From the NCBI GenBank assembly GCA_964234715.1, contig OZ174280.1: DNA of 64,000 bases, one strand, 5' to 3'. A program made the translations under genes and the position numbers. Positions 6,478-60,796 of the stretch are shown in pieces. How positions within the stretch are numbered: position 1 is the stretch's first letter; every line of letters starts with the position of its first letter. Below the pieces are notes generated by a model that did not search any database, was not told the origin of the DNA, and was given only the letters and a program-made list of their open reading frames with translations. The DNA is from Podarcis melisellensis. Its lineage: Eukaryota.

Positions 6478-6994
6478 TGTCATGAATGAGCCAGCTCCAA
6501 GGGAAGGTGTGTAGCCAGGGAAGAGTTGCTGCTAACTGAAGAAAGCAGCCAGGAACAGAGAGGATTAACAGCCATGCAGGATGAGCATCGTCTAGTGCCA
6601 ACTTCCCTGCCCCTTGGAATACTGGCTGATAAGGGAATAGCGGAGAGCCAGCTAGAACGCTGTCAAAGCTCACCAGAAGCAAAAGCAGGTGGGAAAGAGT
6701 TAAGAGACAGCCTCTCAGAGAACAGAGAAGAGGTGGGAGCTGACCCACTCTCTCTGAGGTCTCAATGAATGGGAGGGCTGCAAGACAGGAAGCAAGACAA
6801 AAGACATCTGAAGTGAAAGTTCAGTTGCTTCTGGGCTAGCAGGAAGCAGTCTTCAGAAGAGTCAACTTGAATAATGGTGCCGGCAGCTTCCTAGAGCCAT
6901 CCTAGAGCCAGCCTTTATTGTTTTTGCAATAAATCCTGCTTTTTAATTAGCTACATTTACTGTGTTATAAGGTTGAGAACCTGGACTCCAGACA
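6478..6994 (+). mobile_element. Solo LTR (probably Gypsy-type), 517 bp
   Basis: TGTC...GACA ends, perfect 5-bp TSD ATTGC (6473-6477 and 6995-6999), AATAAA near 6928. Confidence 0.88.
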
Positions 6995-10374: not shown

Positions 10375-10846
10375 TAACCAAATACCTGTATGACTCTATC
10401 CAATTCAGGAAAGGTTTCTTGTGAGTGTAATCAACTCACATTTTGAAACATTAAGGTTCCAAAAAAGGGTTAATGCAATCTGGGCCCTGGGCTTTTAAAT
10501 ATAGCTCCTCAAACACTATGTTCCCATTTTAAATCAAATCTTTGTTTTTCATCATTTTTCCAGAAGTTCACTTATTACAAGATGCTCCTTATTCTTCTGA
10601 TAATTGTTATCACATGAACATATTATCAGCCATTTTAAAATCTCTCGTGTCCTAGTTATTATTCTGGTTTATTGCAGTTTCTTTTGAAGTTCCCATGACC
10701 AATATGTTCATTAATTTGAGATCCCAATCATCCCCATTGTAATTTGAATTGTTGATTTTATTGCCATTTTGGGGCGGAAGCTGCAGAGAATCATTGGCCA
10801 GGATTAATTCCCATCTGATTTGCTGTGGGTCAGTCATTCTCTAGAG

Positions 10847-10982
10847 CAGTGTTTCCCAACCTTGTGCCTCCAGCTGTTTTTGAACTACAACTCCCATCAT
10901 CCCTGACTAGCAAGACCAGTGGCAAGGGATGATGGGAATTGTAGTCCAAAAACAGCTGGAGGCACAAGGTTGGGAAACACTG
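10847..10982. mobile_element. hAT MITE, young
   Basis: Perfect ~35-bp TIRs (CAGTGTTTCCCAACCTTGTGCCTCCAGCTGTTTTTG) and perfect 8-bp TSD CTCTAGAG. Confidence 0.95.
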
Positions 10983-11047
10983 CTCTAGAGTGTTCTGGCT
11001 GCCAACTAGTAAAAGAGAAACATAAACTAACCAGCAAAGTATGAAAA

Positions 11048-11567
11048 TGTCAGAGATCGGGCTGAGGAGTGCTGTTCTGAGAAGGAATGGTGGGAGTCTC
11101 CCCTTCTCCATGACCAGGATCCTGAAGCTGCCCAGGAGCAGTGGAGCAGTATAGATTTGGAGCAGTGGTTTGCAGAGGGACATAGTTCGGAAGACAAAAG
11201 CTGGGCAGAGTTGAGTGGGGAACAGCTAGGAGAAGAAGAACACGGAGAGAGAGAGAGAGAGTTAACAGACTCCGATCCACTGGAAACTGTCCAGCTGCTC
11301 AGTCCAAGGTCAAGAAGATTAGATAAAGTAGCTACACAGAAGGCACAGTGTTTGCAAGATCAGGTTGCAAGACGAGGAAGTGACTCGGGTGACTCAGGGG
11401 GAAATAGGTGGAAACCTTAACTGGGAGCACCTTTACTCCGAGAATGGACTCTTTGTCCTTTCACTGTGAATATTAAAATCTATTTAAATGGTATGAGACT
11501 CTTTTCACTTTGTTCTGCTTATCCACGGCCAAAGGGAGGGAAGAAGCCACTTCCCCGAAGCCTGACA
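11048..11567 (+). mobile_element. Solo LTR (probably Gypsy-type), 520 bp
   Basis: TGTCAG...CTGACA inverted ends, perfect 5-bp TSD GAAAA (11043-11047 and 11568-11572), ATTAAA near 11472. Confidence 0.9.
11049..11420 (+). other. Uninterrupted reading frame inside LTR U3 (no ATG; 123 codons from LTR nt 2)
   Basis: VRDRAEECCSEKEWWESPLLHDQDPEAAQEQWSSIDLEQWFAEG...LLSPRSRRLDK...RWKP*. The frame is seen directly; coding status is inferred. Confidence 0.5.
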
Positions 11568-13305
11568 GAAAAAGAATCAGCACATTTTAAATATAGATTC
11601 AGTTTTCCTCCCAACCCAATATAGGCAGGATTCATCATACCCAGTGCACTAGTGGAAACCAGCGCCAGGACTCCCATTAGTGCAACAGGGGTTTTACACT
11701 GCACAGCCCCCCCCCCCGCTCTGGAGAAGTGTTTGAGAGGGGAGAGGGCAAGCAGAAATTATTGTGCTTATGGAACAAGCATAATAGCACAGTGTTGAAT
11801 TCCATCCTCAGCAATATTCAGGTAGGGATGCTCATCAAAGGAGACCTGCTTATCCTTGTGTAACTGCCTAGAGTAAAATCAGAAGCAAAGGCCCCATCGA
11901 GCCTCTTTCTTGAAGCATCTGACTCAAAAATAATAGCAGAAGGGCATAACACAGCACAACCCCAGGATAGAGCCCTGATGGATCATACCAAGTGCCAATT
12001 TCAGGGGGTGGGGTCAGGTCTAAGGGCCAAAGGTAGCCCTCAGGCACCTCTGGGAGGCCCATGGCTTCGTCCCCAAGCCATGTCCCTTCCTTAGGGCACT
12101 CCCTTCGCTAGCCCTGCTCCATGTCCTGCTTAAGTGATTTTGCCTGACTGGAATGTGCCCTTGAGCTCTAATAATGCCTTTTGCTTGCCTGGGCAGAGAT
12201 GTGCAAAAATATTCTCTGTCCATGTTTGCTTCAGACCCTGCCCACCACTAGCATCCTGCACCTGGGAAGTTGCCAATGATGGGAGGGGACCCTCAGGTTG
12301 AAAAATGTTCCTAATCCCTGGCCTATCAAGCCCAGCATCCACTCTCCCAACCAGATGGCTATGTGAGGCTCGCAAGTACGACATGAGGCAAATAGCCCTT
12401 CCTTTCCTTTTCCTCCAGCAACTGGTATTTAGGACTGGCTAGTAGATCCTGAGCAACCACTGCTATGCAGCAAATCAGAGAGAGGAGGGGGGCTCCACAA
12501 AAGACCTCTCCTGAGCTCCATGGAATTCAGAAATGGGATTGATGTGAGATTTTTCTCTAACTGTCTAGCATATGCACTGATAGCAATACTGTAGCTTGGT
12601 AGGCAGAGGGGAACTTTTAGCTCAAAGGAAACATAAACTTGATGCCTGGCTGACTAATGTAAATGGACACCTGGAAAGTCATCATTCCACTGCACAAAGC
12701 CTTTTTATTTAAATTCCTTAAAAAGAAAACACAGTCGATAAATCCTGGATTATAGTATCTGTGCTTTGTGTCTCTTATACCTTGTGTCAGCCCAAGAGTG
12801 TCACTGTGTAGATCACATCCAGCTTTGCTAGGCCTCCAGGGCTATTAAGTCAAATGAGGGATTGCTGCAGACTCATTCTCAAACAGCTGCTGATGTTTAA
12901 TTTTTTTCCATCAAATGCACTGGAAATGAAGATATAATGCACTTAGCATCTGCTAGACTCGCTTTTGCTTGTACCTGGTATGTGAAAAATGGGGGGCGGA
13001 GGTCTGTTTTATCTCCAAATCTACTTCTGATGTGCAATCTCCCTTGAACATCTAGATACCCATTTAACAGCACACTCCAAGCCCTCAAAATCACAGTGTG
13101 AGTTACTGGACTTTAAAACAGTCTCAAGTCTGGGCTCACATTCTAAAGATAGCCATGCTTAGTTCAGCTGCCAAAAATTGCTTCAAAGCATGCAATCGTT
13201 TTTCTTCTCCATCATTTATGTACATCAAAGGATGATGAATTTTGTTTTCCATAACATGAGAAACCACATAGCATGTTCTCCCTGCTTTCTCTGACATCCT
13301 CATTC

Positions 13306-15781: not shown

Positions 15782-16535
15782 CACTGTGGGCCTTCTGCAG
15801 AGCGGGTGCAGCTGAGTACACTTGTCCCAGGCCTTGGAGGACTAAGCTAAGGGCCTGCCAGACTTACAGTGTCATGTCAGAAATGACCTGTGCCTTCCAT
15901 CTGCCCTAGGCCTCAGACAAGCTCTGCATGGGCCTGCATCACCAAGAACGCAATTCCATTGGAAACAGATCAGCCTACACCCAACCACCCTCATAAGAAC
16001 AGTTTCAGAAGTGAGAAAACTGCTTCTCACCATTAAAAGCTGGTAGGAACGGTGTGTCAATTTGTTGAGACATCGCTGCAGCTTTCATGCAGTCTCAAAC
16101 TCCTGATATTGTTCTTGAATTTTCTAGCTGCACCTTTGATGTTCTGCGCCTGTAGTTTCCCCCCCCTACTAACAGATAATAATTTTGGTCATCGGGGGCA
16201 GGAGCCAGGGCATTCCTTCTGACTGTGAACACTTTAATTTTTTATTTTTTTAAAAAAATAATGATTTAGATGCACTTAGCTACAGTGGTCTGTAAGCAGC
16301 ATAGTGATTATGCAGAGTTTCTCAACATGTGTTGATGGTGTTGGGAAGGACCAGCAGGGGATGTAATGGCAGAGGCGAGTCAGCTGGCTCACCACTACGT
16401 GGCTTGCAATCATGGGGAATGATTGCCTGAAAAAGGCTATTGAAATCTTAAAATACCTGACACCACCTTTGTGGGAGTCCAATGAGCAACTGCCCATTAT
16501 TTCCCCTTTCTATAAAAACAGAAACCGTGTTTATT

Positions 16536-42536: not shown

Positions 42537-42828
42537 TTTTTGATCGATACACCATCATGTCACTCTAGATTTTAAACAGCAGGAGAAAACTCTATGCTGT
42601 AATACCATAGGAAATTGCAGTGTAAAAACTCCTGTGATTTTCCAAGTCAACAGCGTTGGAAACGGGGGTATTTTTTTCCCCTGGGAACATTTAACACAGA
42701 AATCAGCAATAAACTCCCACTAGATTTCCAGAAGGGGCTTCTGCATTGTGATGAAAGATCATGCCAAACACAGAATGTTTCAGGTAAGTAAACATCAGGA
42801 AAATAAAGTACTAAATATGCCTGTTGTC

Positions 42829-43493
42829 CATGGGCCACTGGTCCCATCACTTCCTGGCAAATAGAAGGGGAAGAAATGGAGGCAGTGAGAGATTTTACTT
42901 TATTGGGCTCCATGATCACTGCAGATGGTGACAGCAGTCATGAAATCAAAAGACGCCTGCCTCTTGGAAGAAAAGCAATGACAAACCTAGACAGCATCTT
43001 AAAGAGCAGAGAAATCACCTTGCCAACAAAGGTCCGTATAATTAAAGAAACGGTTTCCGCAGTAGTGGTGCATGGAAGTAAGAGCTTGACCATAAAGAAG
43101 GCTGATCGCCGAATAATTGATGCTTTGGAATTATGGTGCTGGAGGAGACTCTTGAGAGTCCCATGGACTGCAAGAAGATCAAACCTATCCATTCTGAAGG
43201 AAATCAGCCCTGAGTGCTCCCTGGAAGGACAGATCCTGAAGCTGAGGCTCCAATACTTTGGCAACCTCATGAGAAGAGAAGACTCCCTAGAAAAGACCCT
43301 GATGTTGGGAAAGATGGAGGGCACAAGGAGAAGGGGACGACAGAGGACAAGTAGGTTGGACAGTGTTCTTGAAGCTACTAACATGAGTTTGACCAAACTG
43401 CAGGAGGCAGGGGAAGACAGGAGTGCCTGGCATGCTCTGGTCCATGGGCTCATGAAGAGTCGGATACGACTAAATGACTAAACAACAACAACA
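42829..43493 (+). mobile_element. BovB (RTE) LINE, 5'-truncated
   Basis: 201-aa open frame MEAVRDFTLLGSMITADGDSSHEIKRR...; (CAA)n tail. Confidence 0.97.
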
Positions 43494-47268: not shown

Positions 47269-50200
47269 TAATAATAATAATAATAATAAATTTTATTTAT
47301 ATCCCGCCCTCCCCAGCCAAAGCTGGGCTCAGGGCGGCTAACAACAGTCAAAATAGATCAACATTCTAAAAACATTCATTATAAAATTAATTAAAATCAA
47401 ATTAATGGCAACCATCAAGCAAAATTCTGGGTAGGTTGCCAGAGGAGGGGGTCAGGCTGCGCCCTGACCAAAGGCCTGGTGGAACAGCTCTGTCTTGCAG
47501 GCCCTGCGGAAAGATGACAGGTCCCGCAGAGCCCTAGTCTCTTGTGACAGAGCGTTCCACCAGATTGGAGCCGCGGCCGAGAAAGCCCTGGCTCTAGTTG
47601 AGGCCAGCCTAACCTCTCTGTGGCCTGGGATCTTTAGGATGTTTTTATTTGCAGATCGTAAATTTCTCTGTGGGGCATACCAGGAGAGGCGGTCCCGTAG
47701 GTACGAGGGTCCTAGGCCGTATAGGGCTTTAAAGGTTAAAACCAGCACCTTGAACCTGATCCTGTACTCCACCGGGAGCCAGTGCAGCTTGTATAGTACT
47801 GGATGAATATGATCTCGCAGCGAAGACCCCATAAGGAGTCTCGCCACGGCATTTTGCACCCGCTGGACTTTCTGGGTCAGTCTCAAGGGCAGCCCCACGT
47901 AGAGCGAGTTACAATAATCCAGTCTGGAGGTGACCGTCGCGTGGATCACAGTGGCTAGGTCAGGGCGAGAGAGATAAGGAGCCAACTGCTTAGCTTGGCG
48001 GAGATGAAAAAATGCCGCCTTTGTTATAGCTGTAATCTGCACCTCCATAGAGAGGGAGGTATCGAAGATTACACCCAAACTCTTAACGGACGATGCTGGC
48101 ACTAATTGCACCCCCGCAAGAGATGGGAGTTACCCCCTCAATCCCATATCGCTCCATCCCAGCCAGAGGACCTCTGTCTTCGAAGGATTTAACTTCAACC
48201 GGCTCCCACGTAACCATCCAGCCACAGCTTCCAGATATCTGGTCAATGTATCTGGGGCCGAGTCAGGATGGCCGTCCATCAACAGATAGAGCTGGGTGTC
48301 ATTGGCATACTGATGGCAACCCAGCCCAAAACTCCGGACAAGCTGGGCGAGGGGGCGCATAAAGATGTTAAAAAGCATCGGGGAGAGAATCGCACCCTGA
48401 GGCACTCCACACACCAAGGAGTGGCACGATGACAATTCCCCCCCAAGCGCCACCCTCTGTCCCCGACCAGAGAGAAATGAGCGCAGCCATTGAAGGAGTG
48501 TGCCCTGGATCCCCACGTCGGCAAGGCGGCGGTCTAGGAGTTCGTGATCGACCATGTCGAAGGCTGCTGACAGGTCTAGAAGAATCAGCAGCCCCGACCC
48601 GCCTTGATCCAGCTGCCTGCGGAGATCATCTGTTAGGGCGACCAGAGCTGTCTCGGTCCCATGACCAGCACGGAAGCCAGACTGGAATGGATCGAGAGCC
48701 GATGTTTCATCCAGAAACCTACCAAGCTGTTCAGCAACCGCTCTCTCAATCACCTTACCCAGGAATGGAAGATTTGAAACCGGGCGGTAATTGGATAGAT
48801 CTAAAGGATCTAATGATGTTTTCTTTAAGAGCGGACGCACCACTGCCTCCTTCAGTTCCCCTGGGAATATCCCGGTGCCAAGGGACAAATTGATGATATC
48901 ACCCAGGGGGGCCCGCACCTCGTCTGGACACGCTCTAATCAGCCAAGACGGGCACGGGTCAAGAGGACAGGTGGTGGGCTTTCCAGCTTGGAGGAGTCTG
49001 TCCACATTGGCTGGGGATATCCAGTCAAAGTGGTCCAATACTGGACCCGAAGACAGTCGAGGGGCCTCCAGTTCCTTTATTGTATCCAAATTGGCAGGGA
49101 GGTCATGGCGGAGCAACAGGACCTTCTCCGCAAAAAAGCTCGCAAATGCCTCACAGCTGTGTGTCAAATTGTTATTTAAATTTGGCTGTCCTTCAAGGGA
49201 CGTTAAAGACCTAATTATACTAAATAATTGTGCCGGGCGAGAGCTAGCGGAGGTAATGGAGGCCGAGAAGTAGGACTTCTTAGCGGCCTTCACTGCCATC
49301 TCGTAGGTTTTCATAAAAACCCTATAAGATGTTCTTGAGGCTCCGTCACGGGCACCCCGCCATACTCGCTCGAGCCGTCTGAGGTCCCGTTTCATTTTCC
49401 GAAGCTCCTCGGTAAACCAGGGAGCCCGGTTTCTGCGGGGTCGCAGAGGGCGCCTAGGTGCGATCTCATCGATGTCTGCTAGGAGCTGTATATTCCAGCC
49501 CTCAACAAGCTCAGTCAATGAGTCGCCAGGGGGAGCAAGGTCCCGTAAGGCCTGATGGAATCTATCAGGATCCATCAGCCTCTGCGGGCGAGCCCAAATT
49601 GGCTCGCCACCTAAGCAGGGTGGGGGTGAAAAATCAATCCTGGCTTTCAGTGCGTAGTGATCAGACCATGGCACCTTCATCGAAGGAAACATGATCACAT
49701 CTATACCGGCGCCAAAGATCAAATCCAGCGTGTGGCCTGCTTGATGTGTGGGGCCCGAAACAAACTGGGAGAGCCCTAGTGTCGCCATGGAAGACACCAG
49801 GTCCAGAGCCTGTGAGGAGGGAGTGGCATCAGCATGGATGTTGAAGTCCCCCAATACCAATAGGTTAGGGAACTCCAAGGCCCAGCCGGCCACCGCCTCC
49901 AGCAGGCCTGACAGGGTGGCTGCTGGTGCGCTAGGTGGCCGGTACACCAGCCAGACAGCCAAGCTCACCTCGGAGCCCCACACTAGGCCAACACATTCAA
50001 TGCCGGGGATCGATGGCGATGGTAGAGCCCTGAAAGATCAGTCTTCTCGGATTAATAATGCCACCCCTCCCCCCCGGCCCACAGTCCGCGACTGGTGGAG
50101 GACGGAGAAACCCGGGGGCGCCATCTCTCGTAAGGTAACAGTTTCCCCTTCACGCACCCAGGTCTCCGTCACACAAGCCAGGTCAACCCCGTGCGAGGTG

Positions 50201-57466: not shown

Positions 57467-58277
57467 TAATATCTTGTAGTGGGTTAGGCTGGATGGCACA
57501 CAAAGACCACAACAACTCATTCATCTATTACCTGGAACCCAGAATAAAGCCCTATGCAGGTCTTCTGCATGCTTAAGACCTGTTAGTGAGCAGAAAGACT
57601 AGCCGAGGAAGTGCCACCCCCTTCCTGTTGACCTCTAACTTGTGGTGCATTAGTCTGAAGCCTGCACACATGGAGACTTCCTGCACAATTAAGAACCTGA
57701 ATTAAGCAGAGTTCTAAGTCACATAGGGAACCTCTGTATATACAGGAGGCTCCCAGCCCTTGAGCAAGTTGACGAGCAATGGGAAGGGAGGCGGGAGGGC
57801 AAAGCTTAGCACAACAATCCTAGCATGCCATGCTCCTATGTTGGTTTTACATGTTGCAGAACACCTGCATAGGGCTTCAGTTAGTCAGAACAAATCCTAA
57901 ATGGAATGCAGATGGGAGTTAACCTTTCCAAAACCTTATTGTTTCACTTTGGAAGGATTTTAACTTTTAAGCTCTCACATTTGTTCGCCTATTTCTTTTT
58001 GAATCTCTTAAACTGGTTTCAAAGGGATGGGAAATGTATTGTATGTTTATTCATTTACGTATTTAAGAAAAGGTATATACCACTCACAAGACCTCTAAGT
58101 CATTTGGCATAAAATACATATGCCACCTCAAGGTTAGTATAAGTACCGGGGAGGGACAGACTTTGGTAATATAGTGCCCTGAGCAAATACAAAAATTATC
58201 ACCCACCCCCCAAAACAATTCATTTTCCACAACAATTCCTTTTGGTGGATGCTTTTTAATGGATCTTCTCAATTTGA

Positions 58278-58973
58278 TGTTGTTGTTTAGTCATTTAGTT
58301 GTGTCCAACTCTTCGTGACCCCATGGACCAGAGCACACCAGGCACTCCTGTCTTCCACTGCCTCCCACAGTTTGGTCAGACTCATGTTGATAGCTTCAAG
58401 AACACTGTCCAACCATCTCATCCTCTGTCATCCCCTCATCCCCTTCTCCTTGTGCCCTCCATCTTTCCCAACATCAGGGTCTTTTCCAGGGAGTCTTCCC
58501 TTCTCATGAGGTGGCCAAAGTATAGGAGCCTCAGCTTCACAATCTGTCCTTCCAGCGAGCACTCAGGGCTGATTTCCTTAAGAATGGATACGTTTGATCT
58601 TCTTGCAGTCCATGGGACTCTCAAGAGTCTCCTCCAGCACCATAATTCAAAAGCATCAATTCTTCGGCGATCAGCCTTCTTTATGGTCCAGCTCTCACTT
58701 CCATACATCACTACTGGGAAAACCATGGCTTGAACTATATGGACCTTTGTTGGGAAGGTGATGTCTCTGCTTTTTAAGATGCTGTCTAGGTTTGTCAACG
58801 CCTTTCTCCCAAGGAGCAGGCGTCTTTTAATTTCGTGACTGCTGTCACCATCTGCAGTGATCATGGAGCCCAAGAAAGTAAAATCTCTCACTGCCTCCAT
58901 TTCTTCCCCTTCTATTTGCCAGGAGGTGATGGGACCAGTGGCCATGATCTTAGTTTTTTTGATGTTGAGCTTC
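58278..58973 (-). mobile_element. BovB (RTE) LINE, 5'-truncated
   Basis: KLNIKKTKIMATGPITSWQIEGEEMEAVRDFTFLGS...; (CAA)n tail. Confidence 0.97.
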
Positions 58974-60796
58974 CTTGGATGCTGTTTCAATTTAACCCTG
59001 ACTGGACTCAGTATTGTCCCAGGTAGGGCCTGGTGGTGGCAGCGAGAAATAAAGTGGTGGCATAGGGATCAATAAACGGTGAAAAGTCCGGGGACCCTGT
59101 GTGATCGCCACATTGAGTACTCTGATTTTTATTTCACAGGCTACAAAAATGCAAGTATTGTACTAGAATGATACATTTCACAATAATATCTGACCATATG
59201 CACCCCTCATACAATGATTTTAAATCCTGGCATTTTGTGTGGTATATATTTGTATCTACTTCCTATTTTAAAAATTCTAGGACCTATGAGTACCTTACAG
59301 TAGTCACATGTAGTAGCATCCACAATAAGTTTTATCATACAAAGGAAGGTGCTTTTCAGACAAGGGAAGAACCAACAATTGATGCTTATTTACAATGGCT
59401 CCTATGAATCAAAGCGCTCTCTGGGCACATGTAACGGCAAACAGAAAGGAAGTGAAAGCTTTTAAGAAATCTTCTTTATAGTGCCGCATTGATGACATGC
59501 ATTTAAATTTTCTTCATGCCATCAAATGTGAATTCCAATTTAAATGTCAGACTGGAAACTCAAACTCTCGTCCTTTCGTAAAATCATTTGTTACCCTCCA
59601 ATACCTTGTAATGAAGGAACAGAGATATAAAAGAAAAACTAAGCAAATGAAAATATGATTTTAGGACCTAAAATCCTTGAAAAATCCCCTGCCCTTCTTT
59701 TTATACCTTCCCTTCAGAAAAAAATAGTATTTTAAAAATAAAATAACAATAACAAAGCCAAAATACCAGTTTTAGAAAGGTAGTGGAAAAACAAAGACTT
59801 TATCCCCCCCCCCCAGGTTAAAATGCCAGCTGTAATCATACAAAATATCCTTTCTTGCTCATCACTTGACTCCCATCAGCAGATGATTTACCTCTTTATT
59901 TATTACTACTGCTATTGTGATGAACTTGAATATGTGCTGCTGGTGGAAAGTCCTTAATATTAAATATGCAGCTTTTGCTCATCCTTTCATGCAAACTTAA
60001 TGAAAAACACTCCAATTCCTTGCCACCTTACAAAAACTTGTTTCAGCTAAAGTCATTTTTACAAAATGACTTCAATATTTCCTGATTTATTGTTCTTGGG
60101 GAAAATCTGACTTAGTGTGAAACAAAGCAGGAATATAAAGATCATATATACATTTGGGGGGGGATACTTTGATCAAAGGGATCATTAGTAATATGGTTTG
60201 TACAGTGACTGATTGTTCAGCACTAGTGATCATCCAATGTCCAAATCCAGGCCAGGCAGGTTCATCATGGGGTTTTAATAACACTTCCATATAAATCCTT
60301 AAAATTACACACAAGCACTGACAAAATATCTGAGTTGTGAGCACTTACAATATGGTCTGAGGGCTACACCCCTTCTCATCATGCACATTGGAACCAATAT
60401 AGCAAGTCTGTCTAGGAGTGATGGCTCTTGACTGGTTTCTGATTGGTTTAGAATGCTTTCAAGGGGCTGCAACTATTTTTGCTATAATTGTCTGATCGGT
60501 TAAGCAATAATCGCCTGTGTAGTTGGACGTGTATTGAAGATGATACCTGACAAGGTCAACGTGCAGCCTCCTTTTGATATTTTAAGAGGCTCACTCTATG
60601 TACGTTTATATTAACCAAGGCCTAACTTTTAACTTAAAGCTCATGTCTATTGGCATTCCTTTGGGGAACCCCAGTTAGGGAGAACACTTTACATTTTTTT
60701 TCCAACAGATGTACCATCCATCTCGGGGGTAATTTTATGTATGAGACATTCGATTTCCCCAGAGACTATAAAAGGGAATTGGACATAAAGTCAGTA

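Follow-up and report, generated by a model that had tools for sequence, protein, structure and literature searches.

The locus considered here raises the question of why an LTR in a lizard genome carries a long open reading frame that begins at the very edge of the element and contains no start codon. The window, a stretch of 64,000 nucleotides of contig OZ174280.1 in the Podarcis melisellensis assembly GCA_964234715.1, harbors a 520-bp LTR in which this frame is open from the second nucleotide (nt 2) for 123 codons. With a probability of roughly 0.8, we interpret the locus as a defunct solo LTR left by a Ty3/Gypsy chromovirus of lizards, with the frame representing the tail of Pol, which probably gives the integrase a second means of docking on chromatin.

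The LTR spans positions 11048-11567 on the plus strand and shows the features of a solo LTR, namely TG...CA ends (TGTCAGA...CCTGACA), a short inverted repeat (TGTCAG/CTGACA) and a 5-bp target-site duplication (TSD), GAAAA, with its left copy at 11043-11047 and its right copy at 11568-11572, both on the plus strand. The 520-bp LTR of the first-pass annotation is thus borne out. Moreover, TGTCAGA and CCTGACA match the end motif of Sushi LTRs, given as TGTYANR...CNTNACA in the accessible part of PMC3601003. The LTR belongs to a family of lizard Sushi-like chromoviruses, here termed family A, which was collected by a genome search with the LTR in which the best 40 of 1287 DNA candidates and the best 150 of 3989 protein candidates were scored. 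The mean pairwise identity of 51 family-A copies is 82%, an exact 5-bp TSD borders 16 of the 22 full-ended copies (among L001-L030), and we did not observe flanks common to different family-A loci. Family A is an old, high-copy and decayed family of solo LTRs. The copy in the window is likewise a dead, inert fossil without a gene attached at the locus, since the frame, which is open for 129 codons in all, has neither a start codon nor a gene upstream. The remainder of the LTR (11421-11567, plus strand) is non-coding, lacks codon periodicity, and contains the putative signals ATTAAA at 11472 and TATTTAAA at 11481.

Several other elements are present in the window. A 152-bp MITE-like element with a near-perfect 66-bp inverted repeat is located at 10839-10990, 57 bases upstream of the LTR, and a 508-bp TG...CA element with a 5-bp duplication at 57581-58088 lacks an nt-2 open frame on both strands. 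In addition, a LINE at 47455-50037 on the minus strand, which we take to be of the L2/CR1 type, contains an open frame of 635 codons, and further LINE fragments, presumably of the RTE/BovB type, are found at 42807-43493 and 58275-59068.

The frame itself (11049-11420, plus strand) starts at LTR nt 2 and comprises 123 codons plus a stop codon. In agreement with the first-pass annotation, it contains no ATG and encodes an acidic, Trp-studded part followed by SPRSRR, with 30 D/E and 6 W among the 123 residues. The acidic segment (residues 1-84; 11049-11300) is mostly disordered with a short predicted helix at LEQWFA, and the net charge over residues 1-80 is -20. It is followed by SPRSRR and a predicted basic helix (residues 86-110; 11301-11378). 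The AlphaFold model of the peptide is of low confidence (mean pLDDT 58.5), with values of about 72-74 over residues 91-110. When the LTR was subjected to dinucleotide shuffling, an nt-2 open frame was obtained in 3 of 4000 shuffles, and an open frame in any of the six frames in 139 of 4000. Correspondingly, the survey of family copies for stop codons that the earlier annotation had proposed did not reveal a majority stop: among the 51 family-A copies, no codon of the nt-2 frame is a stop in half of the copies, as compared to 10 and 3 such codons in the other forward frames. SPRSRR is retained exactly in 25 of these 51 copies.

A Pfam scan of the window peptide yielded 0 families, and none of 315 candidates was a longer protein containing the peptide. 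A profile search of 1.84 billion representatives yielded 6 matches, all of them short ORFs or Podarcis gene models with LTR pieces; the closest named proteins are likewise from Podarcis. In-frame pieces of the family-A LTR peptide were observed in two P. lilfordi endophilin-A2 models (P0125, P0128) and in a P. muralis SPARC model (P0127), reflecting either exonisation or a prediction artefact.

The origin of the frame is indicated by two family-A LTRs (L317, L318) that are preceded by RT, RNase H, integrase and chromodomain, in this order. In L287/L318, the chromodomain, PKSVGWKKEESLGGDD and VSDHAEEEWW are read in a single frame across the polypurine tract (PPT) into the LTR. In L283/L317, a complete family-A LTR is located directly 3′ of chromodomain and PPT, and the frame is broken at the PPT G-run; both family-A 3′ junctions are decayed and one of the two is out of frame. 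They were recovered via the integrase-end DNA of a relative (35 candidates, all scored), and sequence patterns designed for the PPT or leader junctions of family A matched only solo copies or chance sites. A 5′ LTR was not found within the 9.9 kb examined at either L287/L318 or L283/L317, and the genome searches, which recovered only these two 3′ junctions, did not reveal a two-LTR family-A element with gag. Together with the junctions of intact relatives, these data show that the nt-2 frame at 11049-11420 is the C-terminus of Pol crossing the PPT into the 3′ LTR, as the first-pass annotation had surmised for Pol/integrase. The internal ORF running in frame through the PPT into LTR nt 2, which that annotation had suggested looking for, is seen in L287/L318 and likewise in families B, D and E.

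Chromodomain-to-LTR junctions were examined at 68 distinct chromodomain ends, which are kin and hence not independent trials: 33 are in frame, 20 out of frame and 15 uncalled, in a pattern count that missed L287 (in frame on direct reading) and misplaced L303. Most of the out-of-frame junctions (20 of the 53 called) belong to family B and are shifted by a single base within a G-run. In an RT-RNase H tree of 40 chromodomain-bearing homologues, all of them chromovirus rows without an outside outgroup, family A groups with A3, D and E at 100/100. The element in the window is a Ty3/Gypsy chromovirus and not a retrovirus. In such an element, Pol would be read past the chromodomain and the PPT, with its last ~120 residues coming from the 3′ LTR. 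By the established biology of retroelements, translation would be confined to the copy in the 3′ LTR, within Gag-Pol, and the integrase, being the C-terminal product of the polyprotein, would bear the tail. LTR-LTR recombination would then leave thousands of promoter-side orphan LTRs without such a protein.

The same layout is found in related families. A chromodomain search (best 150 of 3634 candidates scored, 30 loci) yielded the young family B. Three of its members (L100, L101 and L105), with LTRs that are 99.85-100% identical, contain one ORF of 1575-1625 codons comprising gag, protease, RT, RNase H, integrase, chromodomain and PPT, which enters the 3′ LTR at nt 2 and stops 111-117 codons inside. 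From nt 2, the ORF runs into the 3′ LTR for 100 codons in family D and for up to 218 in family E. In these intact relatives, Pol and the LTR lie too close together to accommodate an env gene. Family A2 is the sister of A with a clearly homologous tail; the A2 LTR follows the chromodomain in frame in L284, L289 and L293, and precedes gag-pro-RT in L198. The locus L199, where a chromodomain lies near an A2 LTR with a near-TSD and no PPT, was rejected as a junction. As to family B in general (L072-L107), it is very young, with LTRs up to 100% identical and many open 1575-codon ORFs; in many copies, 1-base differences in PPT G-runs truncate the tail, which may reflect slippage, regulation or an error of assembly. 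Contig C19, a repeat-rich chromosome, accounts for many of the matches to the chromodomain and the internal region.

The tails of families B, C, D and E share a common architecture only, their sequences not being alignable. All 16 squamate rows of the tree lie on one side of a branch with support 84/61, the 3′ ends of four of them not being established, a pattern compatible with one origin of the tail as well as with several. The fish-type homologues suggest that a short LTR read-through may be older than the squamate tail. Three of them (P0056, P0074 and P0120) continue for about 25-45 residues beyond a GG(S/T)V junction, with SPEY as the C-terminus in some.

The first-pass annotation had reported the SPRSRR-type motif in two further LTRs of the window and a common downstream GAAGTGA, of which only part is retained. 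The site at 6751 is located in a solo LTR of a second family, C (6478-6994, plus strand, TSD ATTGC), a copy of which follows a chromodomain in L303/L321. The nt-2 frame of family C extends over about 130 codons; it is decayed in the window, where the motif reads SLRSQ-stop. Family C gave 556 candidates in the genome search, and SPRSRR is present in 4 of 29 copies, with most others differing at CpG-type positions. In L303, where the family-C LTR follows the chromodomain, the frame break is similar to that of L283/L317. The site at 15939 is not in an LTR. It reads SPRTQF and starts just after a short inverted-repeat element of ~155 bp (15785-15938), located beside an L2/CR1-type LINE fragment, at the junction with unrelated DNA; the genome matches to this site mostly cover only the last ~37 bases of the inverted-repeat element and did not reveal an LTR family. 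GAAGTGA at 11377 is coding, within the RGSD codons (33 of 51 family-A copies), and at 6810 it is one variant of several, present in 8 of 29 family-C copies besides GAAGCGA (7) and GAAGCAA (7). Its recurrence is thus coincidental.

As to function, the tails are built alike: a linker that is acidic and for the most part disordered leads to SP or TP and from there to a segment rich in Arg and Lys. We take the tail to be a probable docking arm on the integrase. We consider it an even bet that the flexible acidic linker would display short host-binding motifs, and that SP plus the Arg-rich helix would tether the integration complex to nucleosomes and may also act as an import signal. The tail ends in RRSARL in family B and in RRSARI or RRSLRI in Anolis polyproteins, the acidic linkers of which differ in sequence; RRSxR(L/I/V) was found in the last 60 residues of 0 of 116 non-squamate homologues. 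Judged by the protein junction only, the Anolis tail presumably lies inside the LTR. In HMGN, the motif RRSARLSA binds the H2A-H2B acidic patch through an arginine anchor (PMC12487698, available in part), and the acidic patch tethers viral DNA via LANA, IE1 and foamy Gag, according to the accessible part of PMC9040877. The core RRSARLSA of HMGN and Dsup is matched by RRSARL in family B and RRSARI in Anolis, with an apparently similar disordered carrier and tethering logic. In family B and Anolis, this HMGN-type RRSAR(L/I) anchor would engage the H2A-H2B acidic patch. In contrast to HMGN, the lizard motif is located on a retrotransposon integrase and is LTR-encoded, its binding is putative, and it is absent in the family of the window.

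A second type of candidate docking motif, helix-acidic-FxGF, is present twice in family D (L251, L253, L254, L255 and L267), after the chromodomain and upstream of the PPT. Such motifs are ligands of LEDGF/HRP2 (PMC9987994, in its available part), and those carried by the retrotransposon integrase are candidate ligands for the same LEDGF/HRP2 domain, of the TFIIS N-terminal type. One helix-acidic-FxGF motif is found in family E (L239, L257-L260), and EEENLGF in the Anolis tails P0003 and P0150. In the family of the window, the RRSAR core is absent and only SPRSRR and ARRGSD are present. Since RRSARL is lacking there, the HMGN-anchor argument applies to it by analogy, and as neither the RRSAR nor the FxGF motif is exact in family A, the role of the tail in the window likewise rests on analogy. 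The more general notion, that squamate chromoviruses possess a second, LTR-encoded integrase arm mimicking host motifs (RRSARL, and elsewhere FxGF before the PPT), with the LTR in the window as its fossil version, is plausible, with the odds slightly against it.

The alternative that survives best is that the tail on the integrase is mainly a nuclear localisation signal (NLS), the acidic part being a spacer and SP a regulating phosphosite. NLS and phosphosite roles are possible from the sequence: a K/R-rich segment follows SP or TP at the end of the tail in every family, and a C-terminal NLS is known for the Ty1 integrase (works cited in PMC3605345). However, lacertid family B and Anolis have retained RRSAR(L/I) exactly in spite of diverging flanks, which exceeds the needs of an NLS, and as a main function we regard import as rather unlikely; it is compatible with chromatin docking as a second role.

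An acidic and Trp-rich composition is typical of acidic activators, and the first-pass annotation had accordingly proposed a transcription activation domain, for which the 30 D/E and 6 W of the peptide would speak. We consider this improbable, because the tail is fused to the integrase and the conserved parts of its relatives resemble chromatin-docking motifs: a DNA-binding regulator is absent upstream, the family B tail contains only one Trp, and in family D the acidic stretches correspond rather to docking motifs of the helix-acidic-FxGF kind.

Genes located in U3 are found in retroviruses, and families B and C have an ATG at LTR codon 2 (VMAW, VMNE), as would suit a separate small protein, either released by the protease or translated from an RNA that is spliced or initiated internally. 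This ATG is absent in A, A2, D and E, and in contrast to the retroviral U3 genes nef, sag and bel, the frame at 11049-11420 lacks an ATG of its own, and such frames are continuous with Pol. A separate protein is therefore a shade less probable still, and the accessory gene across U3, put forward initially as the alternative to a Pol extension, is not upheld.

The preferred reading, a tail of the integrase, is consistent with the pattern of substitution. In family A, shared variants are distributed over the three codon positions as 16/19/33 (p=0.007), with 67/91/79 for singletons and 11/9/3 for shared variants downstream of the frame. Differences between A and A2, with 67 out-of-phase columns set aside, are distributed as 27/22/47 (p=5e-4), and three intact-family pairs gave 52/52/104 in the tail (p=5e-7) and 47/51/49 downstream; within A2 on its own, third positions are not in excess (7/12/10, p=0.53). 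The checks of indel phase and dN/dS envisaged in the first-pass annotation gave a mixed outcome. In four pairs, the tail indels (18, 30, 6 and 21) are all multiples of 3, as compared to 4 of 17 downstream, whereas the shared indels of family A have triplet lengths in only 4 of 14 cases and thus show no frame bias. The dN/dS, computed without transition correction, is 0.27-0.59 for the tail versus about 0.08 for the integrase (family B); the L258 pairs were saturated, and the internal values for the L077/L078 pairs, unreliable for these short loci, were ignored. Moreover, the tail dS is about half of the integrase dS in B1/B2, which hints at constraint at the DNA level too. The tail evolved under moderate protein-level constraint, with promoter constraint probably acting on top. 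That the frame is a functionless read-through, open through purine-rich promoter sequence conserved as DNA, is very improbable and largely refuted by the codon periodicity: tail dS below integrase dS, the apparent short extension of fish relatives beyond the chromodomain and the many out-of-frame copies would fit it, but the third-position excess and in-frame indels end at the stop codon and shuffles seldom yield the frame.

As far as the accessible parts of the sources go, the closest known arrangement is that of plant CRM group A elements, where one ORF for Gag-Pol continues beyond the PPT into the 3′ LTR, the portion encoded there being a putative motif for targeting of the integrase (PMC3059260, PMC3605345). 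The Pol ORF of the lizard elements also extends into the 3′ LTR. However, the CR motif replaces the chromodomain in CRM, whereas the lizard elements keep a canonical chromodomain upstream of the PPT and are hence not CRM members. Their LTR adds an acidic-then-basic tail of 100-220 residues, in a vertebrate and not a plant host, and the likeness is one of layout. Furthermore, in contrast to the tRNA-Met PBS of CRM, the lizard leaders start with GTTTGCTC or GATTGCTC and not with a TGG-type PBS. The vertebrate Sushi-type chromoviruses, in the portions of the literature available, are similar in LTR ends, 5-bp TSD and the order RT-RH-IN-chromodomain, with homologues in fish and amphibians, but outside the squamates the homologues mostly terminate within 20-60 residues of the WEP motif of the chromodomain.

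The reading of Pol into the 3′ LTR is therefore already known; what would be new is a family-wide tail with host-like motifs. UniRef already includes tailed polyproteins, named only 'Gypsy retrotransposon integrase-like protein 1'. In the literature searched, to which subscription journals, repeat databases and supplements did not belong, we found no description of the squamate tail, or of any retrotransposon integrase with a motif of the HMGN or FxGF type; the FxGF motif was applied to a host kinase only in the accessible part of PMC6877644.

For genome annotation, thousands of lizard solo LTRs contain an open frame for an acidic peptide, which gene prediction can merge with models of host genes. 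If the docking interpretation is true, the tail would correspond in vertebrates to the CR motif of plants, but added to the chromodomain instead of replacing it, and a retrotransposon integrase would have borrowed the nucleosome anchor of HMGN. The tails would thereby offer short, testable motifs for the choice of insertion sites by vertebrate Gypsy elements.
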